Source of the DNA: Candidatus Kaiserbacteria bacterium
GTDB taxonomy: Bacteria; Patescibacteriota; Minisyncoccia; Phycocordibacterales; Phycocordibacteraceae
NCBI GenBank assembly: GCA_016182485.1
Contig: JACPGH010000006.1
Location: 90,461-154,460 of the forward strand
Length of the DNA stretch: 64,000 nt
Direction of reading: 5' to 3'
The notes below the pieces were generated by a model. That model saw only the letters and a list, made by a program, of their open reading frames with translations, had not been told where the DNA came from and did no database searches. Shown here piece by piece: positions 4,301 to 33,249 of this stretch (its first letter is position 1; every line of letters starts with the position of its first letter). The translations under genes and the position numbers were made by a program.

Positions 4301-7078
4301 TTAATGGTTTACTCTTCCCACAACCGAGAGCGCCCGCACGAGCGCGAGCTTGGCGCCCGTCACGCCGGAGGCGTAACTCGAGTCGATGGCAGTTGTGAGC
4401 GAGGAGATAAGATTCTCAAGGATGGGAGTCGGGAATTGCTGCGCCCTGCGCGCGATGTCAGGATCGCAAGGGGTGCCGTCGATGCGCGCGCGATATGCGT
4501 CGTCTAATAGACAGGCGATCGACGTGAGCAAGTCCTCCGGCGCGCCGCCACCGCGCATATGCTGGCGAAGGCCCGAGAAGACCGCTTCCCTATCGCCTTC
4601 TAGAAGCGAGAGCGCGAAGCCTTTGAGAGATGCGGGGGCCGGGGCCGCGGGAGATGGCTCGGCCGCTTGCATGAGGGGCTCGACGCGCGGCTCCGGAGCA
4701 GGCTCCGCGTACGGGTCGCGCGTAAGGCCCTTGACGATATCCTCTACCGTGAGGGCTCCGTCATTCGCGAACGATTTGAAGCCCTCGTAGGAGGAATATC
4801 CGCGGGAGGTCTCTGGCGTCTCCCTCGACGTAGAGATCGCGGCGGGAGCTGGAGCGGCGGTGGCGGTGGCGGTGGCGGTGGCGGGAACGACGAGTGGTCC
4901 GGGAGTGGTCATGATCATCTCTTTAACACGCTGAATGAATTCCCGCATCTGGCGGTTCACGAACGGGGCGACGTGGAATAGCATCAGATACGCCGCCACG
5001 AGAGCCCAGCCGATGACCGCTAGCCAATACAGTGTTGTTCCCAGAGGGCCGAGATCGAGACCGGTGAAGGGGATCTGCGAGAGAAAGACGAAAGCCAAGG
5101 GCTGCTCTGCCGCCCGCGGAAGCGCGGAAACTACGACAGTCGGCGGCGGCGCAACCGGGGCGCTGGGCGCTCCTGCGCCTCCGCCTGGTTGGGAGAGACC
5201 GACCGCCGCAAAGCATGTGGCCGTCCGGCCGGATGCGTCTCTCGCGGTGCCGGTAAAGGTCGTGCCAGTCGTAATGGGTGGCGTGGTAGTCGAGCCGCTC
5301 TCCACCGGAAACACCGGGCCGATACCCCGGTCGATGGCAAATGCGACCGCGCTTACTGTCGTCCAGAAGAGCCTGGACGTCCCTCCGACATTCACCGTGT
5401 CCGGAGAAGCGGAGAGCGTGCACGCTAGTGCCGGTATAACGACTACGACTGCGGAGCAAGTCACCGAGCCGCCCCTGCCGGTTGCCGTTCCAGTAAATGT
5501 CGTAGTGGCCGTGGGAGAAACGGAAAGCGAGCCGGCCGCGACCGGCGTAACCGAGCCTATTCCGTTGTCGAGGACGAAAGACGTCGCTTCTGTCGACGTC
5601 CAGGAGAGCGTAGAGGAAAGACCTCTTTGAATAGTCGCCGGGGCCGCCGTGAGCGTACAGGTAGGCACCGGGGGAGGCACGACCGATATGGCGGCGGAAC
5701 AATTCACCGAACCGCCCGGACCGGTCGCTGTTCCCGTAAACGTGACGTTGACCGTCGGAGAAACGGAAAGCGAGCCGGCCGCGACCGGCGTTACCGAGCC
5801 GATCCCGTTGTCGATGACGAACGACGTGGCATTTGTCGTTGCCCAAGAAAGGGTTGCCGAGGTCCCCGTCTCGATTGTTGTTGGAGCCGCCGTAAGCGTA
5901 CAGGTAGGCGCCGGCGGAGGAGGGGGCGGCGGCGGCGGAGGCGGGGGTGGAGGAGGAGGGGGCGGCGGCGGAGGGGCGCCTCCATCCGCTTGTACTCCAG
6001 GACCAGCGGGTCCTACGCCTGCGTCTCCGCCGACGCCGCCGGCGTCCCCAGCATCTCCGCCGACACCGCCGGCGTCTCCCGCGTCTCCACCTGCGCCGCC
6101 ACCGTCACCTCCGTCGCCTCCCGCACCTCCACCATCGCCCCCATCCCCGCCGGCACCACCGCCGTCACCGCCGTCACCTCCCGCACCACCGCCGTCGGTT
6201 CCGTAATATCTGATTTGAAATTGAATATGTTCTTTGTCGTCAGCGCCAACATGGCCCAATGGGATCGAGAATGTGTACACCTTATGCTGCCAGGAAACTT
6301 TGTCCGTATACGTGAAGGCGCTCTCCCCCCACGCGGTCTCGCTTCCGTTTATCATGAACGTCTTTACGCCACTATCCGTGACGATGCCGATCTCTGCCCA
6401 ATCTCCTCCCTCGCCGATATCGAGCGTATTGTCGGATGTCCAGTCGAGCGTAATATAGAGATTCTTCTTGTCCGCGCTCACGTGCGCATATCTCACGGCG
6501 AACGGATGGCTAGAGACCGGGATCTCGGCGAAGGTATAAGTACGAGTATCGCCTATGGCGTAATCGAGGAATCCGTTCCTCGGCCATCGATAGGGCTCTC
6601 CTTTAAAATCTTCGGCTACGCCAGTGATCGTGAACGACGCTCCTTTGGCCTTCCATGCGAATTCCAGGCTGCGGTCGCGCGCTTCTATGACGTCATAATC
6701 CGCGCGCGCAAGCTTCTGTATCTGCACGCGGTCCCCCGTCGAGTCTCTCGCGGAAGCGGGAGCCAGTCCGTTCAACGCTACCGTGTCTAGATGCGCCGAC
6801 TGCGTCCCTCCGTTGTGCGTTATCCGTATACGGTCGCTTGACTCTCGCAGCGTGAAAGTTCTCGTAGCGTATCGATCCGGATGCGGGCGACCTGGAAAAG
6901 ATTCGCTTGCCACGAATTCCCAAGAGCCGTTCACGTATGCCTCGATAGTAAATGAATCTGAATCCGCCTGCGCGCTCGGCGTTTGGAAAAGAGAATCGCC
7001 GGATAGCGTAAAACTGCCTCCGAGCGCAAGAAGCATAACTATAACCATTCCTGTTGTATAAATATGCGTCCAGCGCAT
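4301..7078 (-). CDS. Large cell-surface protein: signal peptide, three tandem Ig-like ~70-aa repeats, poly-Pro and Gly-Asp linkers, an IPFTG motif, a single TM helix and a 230-aa cytoplasmic C-terminal domain
   Basis: 925-aa ORF. The signal peptide is MRWTHIYTTGMVIVMLLALGGSFTLSG...AQA. A run of more than 20 prolines is encoded by a GGN tract on the + strand (about 5900-5990), with (GGDGG)n repeats. Three repeats resemble CTLTAAPxTIxxGxSxTLSWxxTxATSFVxDNGIGSVTPVAAGSLSVSPT, matching a ~210-bp DNA tandem repeat at about 5380-5900. The motif LSQIPFTG is followed by the hydrophobic segment LGTTLYWLAVIGWALVAAYLMLF and then NRQMRE. Confidence 0.7.
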   Translation of the reverse strand: MRWTHIYTTGMVIVMLLALGGSFTLSGDSLFQTPSAQADSDSFTIEAYVNGSWEFVASESFPGRPHPDRYATRTFTLRESSDRIRITHNGGTQSAHLDTVALNGLAPASARDSTGDRVQIQKLARADYDVIEARDRSLEFAWKAKGASFTITGVAEDFKGEPYRWPRNGFLDYAIGDTRTYTFAEIPVSSHPFAVRYAHVSADKKNLYITLDWTSDNTLDIGEGGDWAEIGIVTDSGVKTFMINGSETAWGESAFTYTDKVSWQHKVYTFSIPLGHVGADDKEHIQFQIRYYGTDGGGAGGDGGDGGGAGGDGGDGGGAGGDGGDGGGAGGDAGDAGGVGGDAGDAGGVGGDAGVGPAGPGVQADGGAPPPPPPPPPPPPPPPPPPPPPAPTCTLTAAPTTIETGTSATLSWATTNATSFVIDNGIGSVTPVAAGSLSVSPTVNVTFTGTATGPGGSVNCSAAISVVPPPVPTCTLTAAPATIQRGLSSTLSWTSTEATSFVLDNGIGSVTPVAAGSLSVSPTATTTFTGTATGRGGSVTCSAVVVVIPALACTLSASPDTVNVGGTSRLFWTTVSAVAFAIDRGIGPVFPVESGSTTTPPITTGTTFTGTARDASGRTATCFAAVGLSQPGGGAGAPSAPVAPPPTVVVSALPRAAEQPLAFVFLSQIPFTGLDLGPLGTTLYWLAVIGWALVAAYLMLFHVAPFVNRQMREFIQRVKEMIMTTPGPLVVPATATATATAAPAPAAISTSRETPETSRGYSSYEGFKSFANDGALTVEDIVKGLTRDPYAEPAPEPRVEPLMQAAEPSPAAPAPASLKGFALSLLEGDREAVFSGLRQHMRGGGAPEDLLTSIACLLDDAYRARIDGTPCDPDIARRAQQFPTPILENLISSLTTAIDSSYASGVTGAKLALVRALSVVGRVNH

Positions 7079-10204: not shown

Positions 10205-13045
10205 TCAATGGGAGAGATACCGCTCGCGGATCATCGTCTCTACGGTAGCACGGTCGCGCCCGTACGTTTGCGCAGAAAGGTGCACAAGCGCGTCGATTTG
10301 CTCCGGATTCCCTTTCTCCGGCGCCGGCGTCTTCAGGTCAAACGGTTTTTGCGGCACGCCGGCGGCGAGGATTTTCACATATGCGTTGAAATTTTCTATA
10401 TTGACGAAATCCAGAGCTTCGAATACCGGCGCGAACTGCTTCGCGAAAAATTCGGCGTCCTCTTCGCCTACGCGGAAAACAGCCATATTGCCGACGTTGC
10501 CGAACACGGCATTGCGCGTCTTTTCGTCGATCTGATTCAGGAATTGGTGCGCCATGGCGAGCGCGAGCTTGTATTTGCGCGCCTCGGAGAGAATGCCGGG
10601 GATCGAATCGGTAGTTACGTTATGGAATTCGTCCATATAGAGATAGAACGGCGCATGCGCGGCGCGCGGAGAATCCGCGCGAGAGAGAGCCGCCATAAAC
10701 AGTTTCCCTACAATTATGAGACCTATGAGATTTGCATTCTTCTCGCCCAAGCGGCCTTTCGAGAGGTTAATGAGAAGTATTTTCCTGGTGTCCATCACCT
10801 CGCGGAACTTGAATGAAGACTGCTGCTGTCCGACGATCGGCCGTATGAAGTCGTTCGCGGTGAAGTCATCGAACTTGTTCGTGATATACGGCACGATATT
10901 GGCGAGCGAAGCCTCCCCTTCCGCCTTCGTCGCTATCTCCTGCCAGAACTGATTGATGATCGGATTCATGCTCCTGCTCAGTTTCAGCCGGCGGAATTCG
11001 CTATTGGAGAGCACTCGCGCGATATCGAGTATCGTAGAGCCGCTCGTCGGGTCCTCGAGTACGAGCTGAGTCGCATTTCGGAAATATTGCTCGAACGCCG
11101 GGCCCATGCTCTCCGGCACATCTCCATAGAGCCGGCGGAAGATCATCAGGAGCTCGTTCACAATGAACGTCTTTTGTTCGGGCCGAGAGAGGTCGTACTC
11201 GAGAAAATTGAGACTGAAGGGGCGCGATAGGTCCGCCGGGTCGAAGTAGATCACATCCTGATAGCGCGCGGGCGGGACGGAGGCGAGGATATCGAGGATA
11301 TCGGAGCCGTGCGGATCGATGAAGCAGCAGCCTTCGCCGTTCTTGATGTCCTGAATGATCATCGACTTCAAGAGGCCGGTCTTGCCGGTGCCGGTCTGAC
11401 CTATGACATATAGGTGGCGCAGGCGGTCCTCGGCCGAAAGATGGATGGGAGTCTCCACGCCTCGGTAGGTATTTTTCCCCAATAGAACCGCCCCGGCAGG
11501 CGCCTGCCCCGTTAGAAATCCGATTTCTAACGGGGCAGGCGCGTGCGTGAAGCGCGCCTGCTTCAAGTGCGGCGCCGATTCGAGACCGGCCGGCGGGAAA
11601 TGATAGAGGCTCGTCAATTCGCGCAGCGATAACGGAAGGGCGGAGGGACTGGGGAGACGAAAAGAAAAATCCTCGCAAACCCCTTGCACATTGCGCGGGC
11701 CGGCCCGTTCGAACGTAAAGCGGTTCCCTTGCGTATTAGCGAATTGATTAAAGGCGGCTTCAAGCTCGCCGAGCGCTTGTTCGGCCTTGCGCTCGTTGCC
11801 AGAAGACACGACTAGCCGAATGGTCGTGCCGACGATCGGCGTCGCGATCTTCTTTTCGACCAGCTCGATGAAAGTCTTGTTCGCGTCTATTTGACGAGTT
11901 TCCGTCTGCTTGGCTTTTTCGACATCTTTCGGTTTGCTGGAAAAGAGCGCGCGCCCCATGTCGCGCGCAAAGGCCCCGAGCGCGGTCTCCGGCATCGAAA
12001 ACGCGCTCGAATGCTTCTCGCCCTTGCGCAAGGCGTTAAGGATCTTTCGATAATGAGCTACGTGGCGCTCCCCGCGCGGCTCGACGATGATCTGAAGCGC
12101 GGCCCCCTCGCCGGTGTGCTCGATCTTGGCGAAGGCATTCGTTATAACGTTGATCGGGTCGTAATCGAACTCTGTGTACATAGTCAGCGGCAAGGCCGGA
12201 TGCGCAGCGAGTTTCGCCGTAGCAGCGAGCGAAGTCCCGCCCTGAGCAAAGATATTGTAGTCGCGCGGCTCCAGAGTCAGATGGGCGTCCGGGAATATGC
12301 CGAGCAGTTGCTTTTCGAAGAGGTCGCGCTTCCCTCGCGGCACGGCCGCATAGAATTGGAGGTGCGGGCTATCGGCCGGGATCGCGAGCTCAAGCGCGAA
12401 ATAGTTCGGTTCTGCTCCGGAAGCGTTTCCGATCGACAGCAGTCCCGCATATAACTGCTCCATGCTTGAGACAAGTTCTTTTAGCGGCTTGTTTCTGGTT
12501 TCTGGTTTCTGGTTGCTCGTTTCCGGCAGCGCGATCGCATAGAGCTCCATTTTAAGAGCTCTGAAGCGGGGCGCTTTCTCATCCGTGTTCGGCACCTGCA
12601 AACCTTCGCCAACGTAGCGTACGAGATAGCGGTGGAAGTCATCCGTCACGTGCGCGTCGTGGAGGCCTTCCATGACCGCCAGCGCGTTCTTGATCCCTTT
12701 CTCTTCGAGCGTTTTTTGTAGCGCCTGAATGGCCCCGTCGCTGCCGCCGAGCTCGAACTCGGCGCGCAGAGTTTCGGCCCTGCTCTTCTGCTCCGAGGCC
12801 GGCAGGCGATACTCTGGCGCGAGAATTTTTTCAGGCGCTGACGTATGCTCATGGATCGTTTCGGATATGATCCGGACGCGTTCCGCTTCTGGCGCTTGGT
12901 CTGCCGCTCCTTGTCGGAGTTCCGCCTCTTTGCGCGCGACTTGCTCGCGCAGATACGCGAGCTCCGCTTCCGGAGTGGTGAGTGGCGGCGTCGCTTCCAT
13001 TCTTTTTAGTATACCCCGCCGAATACTCGGGGAATTCTTTTTCAA
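10205..13045 (-). CDS. TraD/VirD4-like coupling-protein-type ATPase (FtsK-HerA superfamily, T4SS DNA-transfer-like)
   Basis: 946 aa. Walker A is GQTGTGKTG, followed by CFIDPHGSD (the DPxG motif typical of TraD/TrwB/HerA-like ATPases). The N-terminal domain is about 500 aa. No T4SS partner genes are nearby. Confidence 0.65.
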   Translation of the reverse strand: MKKNSPSIRRGILKRMEATPPLTTPEAELAYLREQVARKEAELRQGAADQAPEAERVRIISETIHEHTSAPEKILAPEYRLPASEQKSRAETLRAEFELGGSDGAIQALQKTLEEKGIKNALAVMEGLHDAHVTDDFHRYLVRYVGEGLQVPNTDEKAPRFRALKMELYAIALPETSNQKPETRNKPLKELVSSMEQLYAGLLSIGNASGAEPNYFALELAIPADSPHLQFYAAVPRGKRDLFEKQLLGIFPDAHLTLEPRDYNIFAQGGTSLAATAKLAAHPALPLTMYTEFDYDPINVITNAFAKIEHTGEGAALQIIVEPRGERHVAHYRKILNALRKGEKHSSAFSMPETALGAFARDMGRALFSSKPKDVEKAKQTETRQIDANKTFIELVEKKIATPIVGTTIRLVVSSGNERKAEQALGELEAAFNQFANTQGNRFTFERAGPRNVQGVCEDFSFRLPSPSALPLSLRELTSLYHFPPAGLESAPHLKQARFTHAPAPLEIGFLTGQAPAGAVLLGKNTYRGVETPIHLSAEDRLRHLYVIGQTGTGKTGLLKSMIIQDIKNGEGCCFIDPHGSDILDILASVPPARYQDVIYFDPADLSRPFSLNFLEYDLSRPEQKTFIVNELLMIFRRLYGDVPESMGPAFEQYFRNATQLVLEDPTSGSTILDIARVLSNSEFRRLKLSRSMNPIINQFWQEIATKAEGEASLANIVPYITNKFDDFTANDFIRPIVGQQQSSFKFREVMDTRKILLINLSKGRLGEKNANLIGLIIVGKLFMAALSRADSPRAAHAPFYLYMDEFHNVTTDSIPGILSEARKYKLALAMAHQFLNQIDEKTRNAVFGNVGNMAVFRVGEEDAEFFAKQFAPVFEALDFVNIENFNAYVKILAAGVPQKPFDLKTPAPEKGNPEQIDALVHLSAQTYGRDRATVETMIRERYLSH
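11500..11542. repeat. 43-nt perfect palindrome inside the TraD-like CDS
   Basis: GCGCCTGCCCCGTTAGAAATC-C-GATTTCTAACGGGGCAGGCGC, with 21-bp perfect arms. In frame it encodes ...HAPAPLEIGFLTGQAPAG... Confidence 0.7.
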
Positions 13046-15905: not shown

Positions 15906-15972
15906 TTCGAACCCCCGGCGCTTCGCGCGCCGAGGGTTCCTTCGTTATGTGATGGACATACGATGTCCATCA

Positions 15973-21654: not shown

Positions 21655-22710
21655 CTATAATTTAACTCGTAAAGCGTCAATCGCCGCAATCAGTTCATCG
21701 GCGCACACGCTTCGCATCAAAGTTGCTCGCATGTCAGCGGCGCCGTCGAAACCGGAGACGAACGCTTTGATGTGCTTCTTTAGGACGTCGAAATGCTTCG
21801 GCGGTGAAAGACTTTCAAAGCCGTGCGCAAGCTCGCCAAGCGCCCGTAATTTCTCCTCGAGCCTATGTTCGGACATCGCATGTCCAACTTCACGGGAGGA
21901 CATCCGATGTCCTGCAATGCCTTCAAATAGCCACGGATTACCGAACAGCGCGCGGCCGAGCATGACGCCGTCACAGCCGGACTCCTCCGCCTTCATTCGC
22001 GCGTCCTCCAGTCCGCGCACGTCGCCGTTGCCGATGAGGAGCACGCGCGGATTCACCCGGTTGCGGATCGAGACGGCTTTTTTCATCAGTTCCCAGTCAG
22101 CCGGCGCTTTTGACATCTGTTTGCGCGTGCGCAGATGAAGCGTGATCGCCGCAGGTTCCGCTTCGAGCAGGACCGGCAGCCATTCATCGAGCGACTCCTT
22201 GCTATACCCCACGCGCGTTTTCACCGAAACCGGCATCCGTACCAATTTCGTCCTATAGGCTGGATTTGGTACGGAAGCTCGCCAGGCTTCTTGCGCCGCG
22301 CGAATAAGCGCGGCGGCATGTTTCGGATTTTTTATGAGCGCGGCTCCGGCTTCTTGTTTCTCGATAGATTTGTCCGGGCAGCCCATGTTGAGATCCACGC
22401 CGTCGAATCCGAGCTCCGCTACAAGTTTTGTCGCATAGGCGATCATTTCCGGCTTGCTCGAAAATATCTGCGCGACGATCGGATGCTCTTCGGCAGAAAA
22501 CTGCAGGTCGCGTATGAGAGGATTCTCAGCATCCGGGATTCTCTGCACTTCGCCCGTGTGATACAAGCCGTCCGCCGAAACGAATTCGGTCCATATGACG
22601 TCCGGCTTGCCGTAACGAACGAGCAGCCCCCGAAAGGCCGCGTCCGTCACATCCGCCATCGGCGCGGAAGCGAAAAACGGCCTCGGCAGCTTGTTCCAAA
22701 ACGATTCCAT
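21655..22710 (-). CDS. tRNA-dihydrouridine synthase (Dus family)
   Basis: The N-terminus (FFASAPMADVTDAAFRGL) and PVSVKTRVGY match the Dus FMN TIM-barrel. The C-terminal segment resembles a helical Dus domain. Confidence 0.85.
   Translation of the reverse strand: MESFWNKLPRPFFASAPMADVTDAAFRGLLVRYGKPDVIWTEFVSADGLYHTGEVQRIPDAENPLIRDLQFSAEEHPIVAQIFSSKPEMIAYATKLVAELGFDGVDLNMGCPDKSIEKQEAGAALIKNPKHAAALIRAAQEAWRASVPNPAYRTKLVRMPVSVKTRVGYSKESLDEWLPVLLEAEPAAITLHLRTRKQMSKAPADWELMKKAVSIRNRVNPRVLLIGNGDVRGLEDARMKAEESGCDGVMLGRALFGNPWLFEGIAGHRMSSREVGHAMSEHRLEEKLRALGELAHGFESLSPPKHFDVLKKHIKAFVSGFDGAADMRATLMRSVCADELIAAIDALRVKL
22237..22274. repeat. 38-nt imperfect palindrome inside the dus CDS (encodes VPNPAYRTKLVR); near-identical to an intergenic copy at 32864-32905
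   Basis: The sequence is CCGTACCAATTTCGTCCTATAGGCTGGATTTGGTACGG. The copy at 32864-32905 matches it at about 34 of 38 positions. Confidence 0.6.
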
Positions 22711-32655: not shown

Positions 32656-32740
32656 GCTGGAGTGGCGGAATTGGTATACGCGCACGACTCAAAATCGTGT
32701 CCCGCAAGGGTTGTGGGTTCGACTCCCACCTCCAGCACCA
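32656..32740 (+). tRNA. tRNA-Leu (anticodon CAA), class II with a long variable arm; CCA encoded
   Basis: Acceptor GCTGGAG/CTCCAGC, 3-bp D-stem with an 11-nt loop, anticodon stem CACGA/TCGTG with loop CU-CAA-AA, variable arm CCC-GCAA-GGG, T-arm GTGGG-TTCGACT-CCCAC, discriminator A, then CCA. Confidence 0.85.
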
Positions 32741-32748
32741 GCGTTTTG

Positions 32749-32848
32749 TGCTGGGGCGCAACGGATTCCCCGTAAAAAGCGGACTTTAAACGGGGCGGGC
32801 AAAACCCATCGCCGCAAGGCATGAGAGTTCGATTCTCTCTCCCGGCAC
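32749..32848 (+). other. tRNA-like element (T-arm plus acceptor and class II-type variable hairpin) with a non-canonical or over-long interior
   Basis: The variable hairpin GCC-GCAA-GGC, the T-arm GAGAG-TTCGATT-CTCTC and the 3' acceptor TCCCGGC-A parallel the adjacent tRNA-Leu. A 5' strand GCTGGGG (32750-32756) can pair with the acceptor, but the intervening 52 nt cannot be folded into a standard D-arm and anticodon arm; the closest fit is a 4-bp ACGG/CCGT stem with a 5-nt loop and no 5-bp/7-nt anticodon arm. Confidence 0.3.
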
Positions 32849-32863: not shown

Positions 32864-32905
32864 TAACAATACCGGGCGTACCAAAATCGTCCTATAGGAC
32901 GGATT
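32864..32905. repeat. Long imperfect palindrome GGGCGTACCAAAATCGTCCTATAGGACGGATTTGGTACGCCC (intergenic copy of the dus-internal palindrome)
   Basis: About 20-bp arms around CCTATAGG. It matches 22237-22274 at about 34 of 38 positions. Confidence 0.6.
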
Positions 32906-33249
32906 TGGTACGCCCGTCCTCTAGCCCAAAGCAACCACTTAACTTTTGCGCGGTTCTTGCTACCATACTCGCATGCTGAAACGAATATTTGCCACGGCTA
33001 TTGTCCTTTTGCTCGCCCTCGGGATGATAGGCCTGTTCTTCCCTACTCTCGTCGGAGGTCAGTATTAATAGCGCAAATCGCGCGAGTGCCGTACAGAGAT
33101 CTGGGTATTCATTATCCACACTTGCGCATAACTGGCATTTCTGTCATACTTGCGCCACTCGCAGAGTATTCGAGCTTCTTCAACCCTTCGATTTACTCAG
33201 GGCAAGCAAGCGTTCAGTTTCGGCGAGGTTAATCGTTCAAAAATCCACA

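Follow-up and report, generated by a model that had tools for sequence, protein, structure and literature searches.

Two copies of a long DNA palindrome lie in the 64,000-nt stretch of Candidatus Kaiserbacteria DNA analysed here (contig JACPGH010000006.1, positions 90,461 to 154,460; the window denotes this whole stretch), one of them in-frame in dus, the gene of a tRNA-dihydrouridine synthase (Dus), and the other in an intergenic region following a tRNA-Leu gene. They belong to a family of palindromes in Patescibacteria that also bracket the gene of a small PaaX-like protein, and we propose that the palindrome is probably the cognate DNA site of this protein. The features concerned are the following, with coordinates in the window.

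21655-22710, minus strand: dus, tRNA-dihydrouridine synthase of 351 aa (PF01207, E = 1e-54)
22237-22274: palindrome copy 1, CCGTACCAATTTCGTCCTATAGGCTGGATTTGGTACGG, in-frame in dus, imperfect hairpin (family covariance model, E = 2e-15)
32656-32740: tRNA-Leu(CAA)
32874-32915: palindrome copy 2, GGGCGTACCAAAATCGTCCTATAGGACGGATTTGGTACGCCC, intergenic, 42-nt near-perfect palindrome (family covariance model, E = 9e-18)

The Dus of the window is 100% identical to a Candidatus Kaiserbacteria protein. Read on the sense (minus) strand, copy 1 encodes VPNPAYRTKLV(R) directly ahead of PVSVKTRVGY, and the preliminary description of this DNA had placed it in-frame in dus at exactly these coordinates. The encoded insert comprises residues 147-157, in a loop between the helix 129-146 and the strand 161-164 that holds PVSVKT; in the AlphaFold2 (AF2) model of Dus, with a mean predicted local distance difference test score (pLDDT) of 82, it forms a lower-confidence loop (pLDDT ~61). 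Copy 2 has its core at 32877-32912 and reaches 44 nt as a maximal palindrome (32873-32916). That this copy is real and intergenic had been recognised, but its position had been given about 10 nt off, as 32864-32905, and its distance downstream of tRNA-Leu as about 125 nt, where we measured ~134 nt from the end of the gene. The similarity of the two copies had likewise been overestimated, at about 34 of 38 positions; it is 32/38 overall and 32/36 within the core.

Chance is excluded as the source of the two copies by the shuffle, folding and covariance-model results. None of the window shuffles yielded a match at ≤3 mismatches, and the hairpin z-scores against shuffled controls were -5.8 (copy 1) and -7.8 (copy 2) for RNA and -5.0 and -8.0 for DNA. 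Beyond the two copies, the family covariance model found nothing in the window under E = 0.8. The next match, AT-rich and not reliable in its score (10.2 bits, E = 0.86), may be a degenerate family member or relic.

28-73: possible degenerate family member or relic, TTCCAATTATTCACTATAGGATGGAATTGGAA

Both window copies belong to a family with the consensus TACCAA-N6-CCTATAGG-N6-TTGGTA. A scan of one genome per species for the exact pattern ACCAA-N6-CCTATAGG-N6-TTGGT gave 24 sites, mostly in metagenome-assembled genomes (MAGs) of Patescibacteria, compared with a chance expectation of ~10-17 sites estimated by hand from the degeneracy of the pattern. The sites in Patescibacteria MAGs have longer common arms, TACCAAATC-NNN-CCTATAGG-NNN-GATTTGGTA; these arms are missing from the matches in Microcystis, Prevotella, Methylotenera and actinobacteria, which were treated as chance. 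A stricter scan of metagenome contigs yielded 31 loci, all resembling the Candidate Phyla Radiation (CPR) by gene content, and viral contigs gave 0 palindrome matches. The repeat family with further copies that had been suspected from the window was thus found, by the genome and metagenome scans, in the source organism and in many other Patescibacteria.

The stems of the family covary. Among 33 distinct copies, 83.6% of the cells in the comparison pair and double-sided changes occur at 9 of the 17 pairs; the covariation score of 0.227 (0.126 in shuffles) was reached by 0 of 500 shuffles, and the signal collapses in a control with slid partners. The outer arms vary by lineage, with CGTACC in the source organism and MAG nzgw456, CAATACC in MAG CAZJZB01 and CTACC or AAATACC elsewhere, and palindromy often reaches past the shared core, differently at each site. 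Elements measure 33-44 nt across the family, and full palindromes 38-44 nt. There are 2 copies per 64 kb in the window and about 4-8 per MAG in the DNA examined; the source organism has at least 4, namely the 2 in the window and 2 in the locus L060 discussed below (loci are numbered with L, proteins with P). About 40% of the unique sites are in-frame within genes.

Comparison with orthologues identified the dus copy as an insertion, for which the preliminary description had expected 12 codons. The insert in Dus measures 11-13 codons and occupies a surface loop. In an alignment of 30 Kaiserbacteria-like Dus, most have a gap opposite WRASVPNPAYRTKLVRM of the window protein, and three others bear PKSSYRTDL or PKDAYRSDL at the insert position. 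The motif is present in 14 of the 120 best Dus homologues, always in the insert loop and scattered over the family, and for four of these 14 (the Dus of the window, P0018, P0040 and P0087) the most similar sequence lacks the insert, P0088 being close to the same situation. The proteins P0018 (filled) and P0092 (empty) are 89% identical, and at the DNA level the filled L001 differs from the empty L058 by a net in-frame gain of 33 nt with ambiguous borders. The spacing from the insert to PVSVKT is 1, 2, 4 or 6 aa, depending on the lineage. A MutY-like protein shows the same scattered pattern, with the motif in 9 of 120 homologues, at one variable loop, and apparently decayed versions (...TRxNLV) in several others.

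Copies within genes follow a reading-frame rule. At 18 of the 19 unique sites within open reading frames (ORFs) of ≥120 aa, the palindrome encodes the peptide [ILV]P[NK]xSYRxDLV (frame A); the single exception, a 154-aa ORF in DNA of 62% GC, looks spurious. One of the two other frames holds a TAG stop and the third encodes the bulky YQIRPIGRIWY. The hosts include Dus (many loci) and a MutY/Nth-like helix-hairpin-helix glycosylase (L008, L017, L045, L049, L057), as well as MnmA (L015) and a PduO-type adenosyltransferase (L046/L047), both named from reading the translated sequence alone. The sequence GC(C/A)AAAGAA, encoding AAKE, stands 12-18 nt upstream of the insert in Dus (L001, L002, L039) and in the MutY-like gene (L008, L017, L045, L057) and is missing from the MnmA and PduO-type genes; it could be a coincidence or a target preference.

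In frame A, all third codon positions pair with second codon positions across the stem. All five protein-ascertained Dus inserts with DNA (the window, L001, L002, L066 and L067) keep the codons CCA/TAT/AGG/TTG/GTA, and hence the palindrome. A Dus peptide conserved with unrelated codons, and with no other copies of the palindrome, had been named beforehand as the observation that would speak against a palindromic element; the peptide-bearing orthologues instead use the same palindromic codons, and other copies exist. It is the nucleic acid on which the constraint acts. Sense-read coding copies contain 25 A.C mismatches compared with 11 G.U pairs, an excess that speaks against selection of the mRNA hairpin and in favour of an origin or role at the level of DNA.

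Our analysis of the fetched loci with the covariance model revealed pairs of palindromes 612-711 nt apart, each enclosing an ORF of ~192 aa that encodes a PaaX-like protein. Among the loci obtained by the palindrome search, L005, L020, L021, L027, L028, L031 and L051 are bracketed in this way, and L007 has the upstream copy only. All five loci reached via the protein alone (L060, L062, L063, L064 and L065) are bracketed as well, with the centre GTCCTATAGG kept, so that the total is 12 bracketed loci plus the one-sided L007. Upstream of the gene lies a conserved imperfect variant, TACCATTTTGAACCTATAGGATAGAATTGGTAG, with its end at the ATG and a -10-like TAGAAT/TATAAT in the right arm, 6-9 nt ahead of the ATG; the downstream copy is consensus-like and begins at most ~25 nt past the stop codon. 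This asymmetry is kept across lineages. The outer arms are specific to the lineage and to the paralogue:

L060, protein P0140: outer arms GTACCAA / TTGGTAC
L064, protein P0190: outer arms ATACCA / TGGTAT
L062, protein P0206: outer arms GTTCATG / CATGAAC
L063, protein P0224: outer arms CTCCTTA / TAAGGAG
L065, protein P0234: outer arms GTATCC / GGATAC

One 62.7-kb contig encodes both P0224 and P0234, which are paralogues, each with its own arms on both flanks. The winged-helix regions of the proteins differ between arm groups, on anecdotal evidence. Solo copies with the alternative arms GTTCATG, CTCCTTA or GTATCC were absent from the 20-kb loci examined. The neighbours of the PaaX-like gene are gyrB, pheS/pheT, dnaG, rpoC and secA, with no paa operon nearby.

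Two further palindromes were observed at such loci. In L063, an element at 6264-6296 within a sortase gene, ACCAAATC-A-GATTTGGT, has the family arms without the CCTATAGG centre and may be a centre-deleted derivative. In L035, a distant PaaX-like paralogue is followed at 1451-1492 by a different 42-nt palindrome, AATAAACCTTGATTTACACGG|CCGTGTAAATTAAGGTTTATT, again without the CCTATAGG centre, and part of its arm recurs upstream of the paralogue gene, so that other paralogues may be paired with palindromes of other families.

The bracketed gene encodes a protein of ~190 aa with a winged-helix N-terminus and a Cas2-like central domain; of PaaX it has only the N and M domains. PF20803 (PaaX_M) matches at E = 1e-16 to 1e-21 and Cas2 models match weakly, while the NCBIfam PaaX model TIGR02277 scores 39-41 bits, below its cutoff of 264.6. 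In the AF2 model, a helical N-terminal region with a beta-hairpin, which fits a winged helix, precedes a beta-alpha-beta-beta-alpha-beta unit, and among PDB structures Foldseek ranks E. coli PaaX (8a39) first and many Cas2 structures next. The FDI motif of the PaaX-like proteins has an invariant Asp. The family is large: one search returned 606 clusters at 90% identity, and 1331 clusters at 50% identity reach E ≤ 1e-10, nearly all of them of ~190 aa. PHROG gave no match for the protein and a defence-system search only partial Cas2 matches. Database entries are named "Cas2" or "PaaX", and the "Cas2" names are probably mis-annotations.

The Logan contig L060, which encodes P0140, shares the TGTGAAGGTC repeat family with the window and would therefore come from the source organism or a very close relative. 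Its upstream palindrome GCGTACCAATTTCGTCCTATAGGATAGAATTGGTACGC has a left arm that matches that of copy 1 on the plus strand, CGTACCAATTTCGTCCTATAGG, at 22/22 positions, and its downstream palindrome CCGTACCAAAATCGTCCTATAGGAGGATTTTGGTA a left arm that matches that of copy 2, CGTACCAAAATCGTCCTATAGGA, at 23/23. The AA/TT difference between the two window copies is explained by this correspondence, one copy matching the upstream and the other the downstream palindrome of L060. In a comparison of 66 copies, the nearest relatives of the window copies were the L060 upstream copy (33/38) and each other (32/38), compared with at most 31 matching positions for the dus copy, and at most 32 for the intergenic copy, among Dus-site copies of other genomes. 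In MAG CAZJZB01, the copies in MnmA and Dus agree at 37/38 positions; the closest similarity is among copies of one and the same genome. The dus copy of the window also differs from other Kaiserbacteria Dus copies in that it has the opposite orientation, the opposite subtype and a different offset to PVSVKT. These observations favour independent acquisition or within-genome homogenisation over simple vertical descent of each copy.

Known systems share parts of this arrangement. The gene of a RAYT, the tyrosine transposase associated with repetitive extragenic palindromes (REPs), is single-copy, vertically inherited and flanked on both sides by REPs (PMC2817692), and intragenic REPs occur occasionally, often in repair genes (PMC3733652). 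The palindromes described here resemble REPs, which are short (20-40 bp) imperfect palindromes dispersed in the genome, in their dispersal and in their size of 38-44 nt, in flanking a gene on both sides, in palindromy kept by compensatory changes and in the presence of intragenic copies. They differ from REPs in that the flanked gene encodes a winged-helix plus Cas2-like protein and not an IS200/IS605-type Y1 transposase, in ends of (C)GTACC, ATACC or CTACC without the GTAG/CGTC head, and in the few copies per genome, compared with tens to thousands of REPs (usually >100, mostly extragenic). REPIN doublets are also absent, the in-frame share is large and the hosts are Patescibacteria. Rickettsia palindromic elements (RPEs) lie in-frame in unrelated housekeeping genes and encode a conserved peptide at fold-compatible sites (PMC10969869), and in-frame insertion of a palindrome encoding a conserved peptide is what we observe in Dus, the MutY-like protein, MnmA and the PduO-type protein. 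However, RPEs are ~100-150 bp long, compared with 33-44 nt here, are unrelated in sequence, have no known bracketed gene and belong to other hosts than Patescibacteria. The palindrome system is thus REP/RAYT-like in its architecture and RPE-like in its effect on proteins, and lacks defining features of both. It also differs from a miniature inverted-repeat transposable element (MITE): here the whole element is one palindrome, without terminal inverted repeats and without a clear direct duplication when filled and empty sites are compared.

The closest parallel to the bracketed gene itself is E. coli PaaX, which binds TGATTC-N27-GAATCA and represses its own promoter (PMC9493321). In both proteins a winged helix at the N-terminus precedes a Cas2-like domain in the centre, and the putative operator, recognised here from sequence alone, consists of distant inverted hexamers (TACCAA-N20-TTGGTA) abutting the gene's own start codon. 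The differences are a length of ~190 aa without the C-terminal ligand domain (PaaX has ~305 aa), a spacer that is itself a conserved palindrome with the CCTATAGG centre, a second copy past the stop codon and sites inside coding sequences. The beta1-alpha1 core with the conserved Asp of a (Y/F)DI motif matches Cas2 models, and the inserts of 33-39 bp happen to be about the size of a spacer; unlike at Cas2 loci, no cas1 or other cas genes were found among the called genes and Pfam annotations of the loci, in which CRISPR arrays were not specifically searched. Our literature search, with incomplete coverage, turned up no account of in-frame palindromes in CPR/Patescibacteria and no link between such a palindrome and a PaaX/Cas2-like protein; an earlier description is possible.

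We conclude, with a probability of about 0.6, that the PaaX-like protein has its cognate DNA site in the palindrome, that this site is dispersed in the manner of REPs with a RAYT, and that copies in coding DNA are kept in one frame only. The position of the palindromes and their covarying arms suggest that the PaaX-like protein binds them. By analogy with E. coli PaaX, a dimer on the two outer hexamers (TACCAA ... TTGGTA, 20 bp apart) would probably repress the protein's own gene. The window copies would be solo copies of this site, copied to a few further places per genome, in a relation to the bracketed gene like that of REPs to their RAYT, and a copy in coding DNA would survive only in a permissive surface loop and in the [ILV]P[NK]xSYRxDLV frame. 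We infer from the presence/absence patterns that solo copies arise by insertion and not only by loss. The solo copies may be regulatory sites of a small regulon or selfish copies. Of the two ideas advanced in the preliminary description, the mobile or recombinogenic element is borne out as far as the repeat family and its scattered insertion are concerned, while mobility itself would follow from the presence/absence patterns, and no target-site duplication is visible. The alternative given there, a conserved binding site, gains support from the palindromes that bracket a gene for a PaaX-like DNA-binding protein, and is compatible with the mobile reading.

Several points weigh against this conclusion. 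The protein is connected with the palindrome by position and covarying arms only, its AF2 model is only moderate (mean pLDDT 67), and a scan for sigma-70 consensus promoters around L060 found no canonical promoter in the upstream palindrome; neither there nor around copy 2 did promoter and terminator scans rise above chance. A tblastn search found no PaaX-like gene inside the window, and that L060 belongs to the same genome as the window is itself a deduction. The low copy number is as compatible with a small regulon as with a mobile element, and no transposase was found. Target-site duplications, which the preliminary description had proposed to look for around the copies, are not clearly visible in a comparison of the filled L001 with the empty L058. 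An ancient insertion with repeated loss, instead of repeated gain, could account for the filling of identical loops of Dus and MutY in distant lineages. Finally, some taxonomic labels look unreliable: several third-party annotation (TPA) MAGs (L021, L006, L007 and L015-L018) are titled "Candidatus Saccharibacteria", yet the PaaX-like proteins of L021 and of a Kaiserbacteria MAG (L005) share 95% identity.

A more far-reaching version holds that the PaaX-like protein does not only repress its own gene but itself copies the palindrome, as the enzyme or targeting subunit of a domesticated mobility system that would be RAYT-like, derived from Cas2 and peculiar to Patescibacteria. With its Cas2-like domain and conserved Asp the protein is a candidate enzyme, but this is speculation and we consider this version unlikely.

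It is similarly doubtful that the palindrome is a purely selfish REP- or MITE-like element, mobilised by some other transposase, with the bracketing of the PaaX-like gene incidental (a preferred landing site or a reused terminator). Such an element would agree with the scattered presence/absence among orthologues and the close similarity of copies within a genome, the site-specific palindromy past the core suggests a hairpin-based origin, and intragenic REPs and RPEs offer precedents (PMC3733652, PMC10969869). However, the bracketing is too regular, being found at 5/5 protein-ascertained loci, on both sides and abutting the start and stop codons, and incidental insertion fits poorly with two paralogues in one genome that have different arms and with an upstream-variant asymmetry kept across lineages. 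The copy number is also very low for a proliferating element, and neither a transposase nor a target-site duplication was seen.

Function as an RNA hairpin, be it a terminator, a stabiliser, a processing site or a translational pause, is improbable to a greater degree. The hairpins are predicted to be strong, at -24 to -34 kcal/mol, copy 2 is preceded by a tRNA gene and the downstream copies by the stop codon of the PaaX-like gene, but there is no U-tract, and scans of L060 and copy 2 gave no terminator call over the full hairpin. An intrinsic terminator was rejected as there is no T-run past the full hairpin and the scan selects no more than the inner 5-bp stem, on the minus strand and at chance level. 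The predominance of A.C mismatches in coding copies is the opposite of what selection on mRNA would give, and an RNA role leaves the paralogue-specific arms unexplained. Rfam 15, used in gathering and E-value modes, returned two tRNAs and, for the palindromes, only generic miRNA-hairpin matches of 17-20 bits, far from their cutoffs of 90-330, and no family beyond these.

It is very improbable that the palindrome is a signal for genome maintenance that has nothing to do with the PaaX-like protein, for instance a DNA-uptake sequence or a recombination site. The model for such a signal is the DNA-uptake sequence of Neisseria, which occurs in inverted pairs and is enriched in repair genes; Patescibacteria are thought to depend on DNA uptake, and the hosts or neighbours of the palindromes include MutY-like and uvrB genes. 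Known uptake sequences, however, number hundreds to thousands per genome as opposed to a few copies here, and the palindromes appear as whole 33-39-nt insertions and not by gradual point mutation, with arms that differ between paralogue-linked sets in one genome. An old Dus loop motif with a function at the protein level and incidental palindromy, for which its recurrence in the same loop in several lineages might speak, is close to refuted, given that 106/120 orthologues lack the peptide, that the same DNA occurs in non-coding positions and unrelated proteins, that complementarity is preserved by the fixation of synonymous positions, and that the stems covary.

The window is rich in other palindromes. 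It contains 49 long hairpins (stem ≥12 bp, ≤2 mismatches, loop ≤8 nt), compared with ~11 in mononucleotide shuffles, and 29 of 50 (these 49 and the dus copy) lie inside ORF-based gene proxies. A second, unrelated inverted repeat is in-frame in dus at 21871-21912 (sense GGACATCGGATGTCC-N12-GGACATGCGATGTCC, peptide GHRMSSREVGHAMS), in an indel hot spot with an AF2 pLDDT of 36-40, where Dus orthologues have other palindromes (CAAGGTTCAATCTTG... in L001, GGACTTCGTAAGTCC... in L059) or none. Its 15-nt unit GGACWTNNNWWGTCC builds a perfect 43-nt palindrome at 2450-2492 and also occurs at 15954. A near-perfect palindrome of 51 nt at 11496-11546, GCAGGCGCCTGCCCCGTTAGAAATC-C-GATTTCTAACGGGGCAGGCGCGTGC, lies inside a 946-aa ORF (10205-13045, minus strand) and is probably the one that had been called TraD-like, and pheT of the same organism contains the TGTGAAGGTC palindrome in-frame (L060 2361-2381, peptide VCEGQTFTI). 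The dus, 946-aa ORF and pheT cases support the earlier suggestion that in-frame palindrome insertion is recurrent in this genome. The palindrome TGTGAAGGTCnGACCTTCACA, one copy of which is the one in pheT, has 8 occurrences in the window, all of them paired at a distance of 44-55 nt in inter-ORF gaps:

13692/13736: first TGTGAAGGTCnGACCTTCACA pair
46043/46088: second TGTGAAGGTCnGACCTTCACA pair
49983/50028: third TGTGAAGGTCnGACCTTCACA pair
61076/61131: fourth TGTGAAGGTCnGACCTTCACA pair

Immediately 3' of tRNA-Leu(CAA) we observed a tRNA-like piece of ~100 nt (32747-32848, plus strand). Its 5' end, GCUGGGGCGCAACGGAUUC, is like that of a transfer-messenger RNA (tmRNA), and its 3' end consists of a T-arm (GAGAG-UUCGAUU-CUCUC) and the acceptor strand UCCCGGCAC. 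ARAGORN (tRNA, intron and tmRNA modes) and Rfam made no call for this piece, the best Rfam results being partial tmRNA matches at E = 0.02-0.5. The piece may represent a remnant, a duplicate of an attachment site or an unusual small RNA.

Gene callers will yield spurious antisense ORFs over these palindromes, which should be considered in the annotation of such genomes. The palindrome can serve as a marker to follow insertion and loss in metagenomic populations, and the proposed interaction is directly testable with one small protein and a 38-mer. The pairing of palindrome and protein would be a REP/RAYT-like arrangement on a different protein fold. Patescibacteria have tiny genomes, and their conserved proteins contain many unexplained lineage-specific inserts. 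If the more far-reaching version is true, the copying protein would write in-frame insertions of 33-39 nt into the surface loops of housekeeping proteins and so add to such inserts. The palindrome family is a concrete, sequence-defined source for some of the protein inserts of Patescibacteria, linked to a very widespread, uncharacterised small protein that is now labelled "Cas2" in databases.

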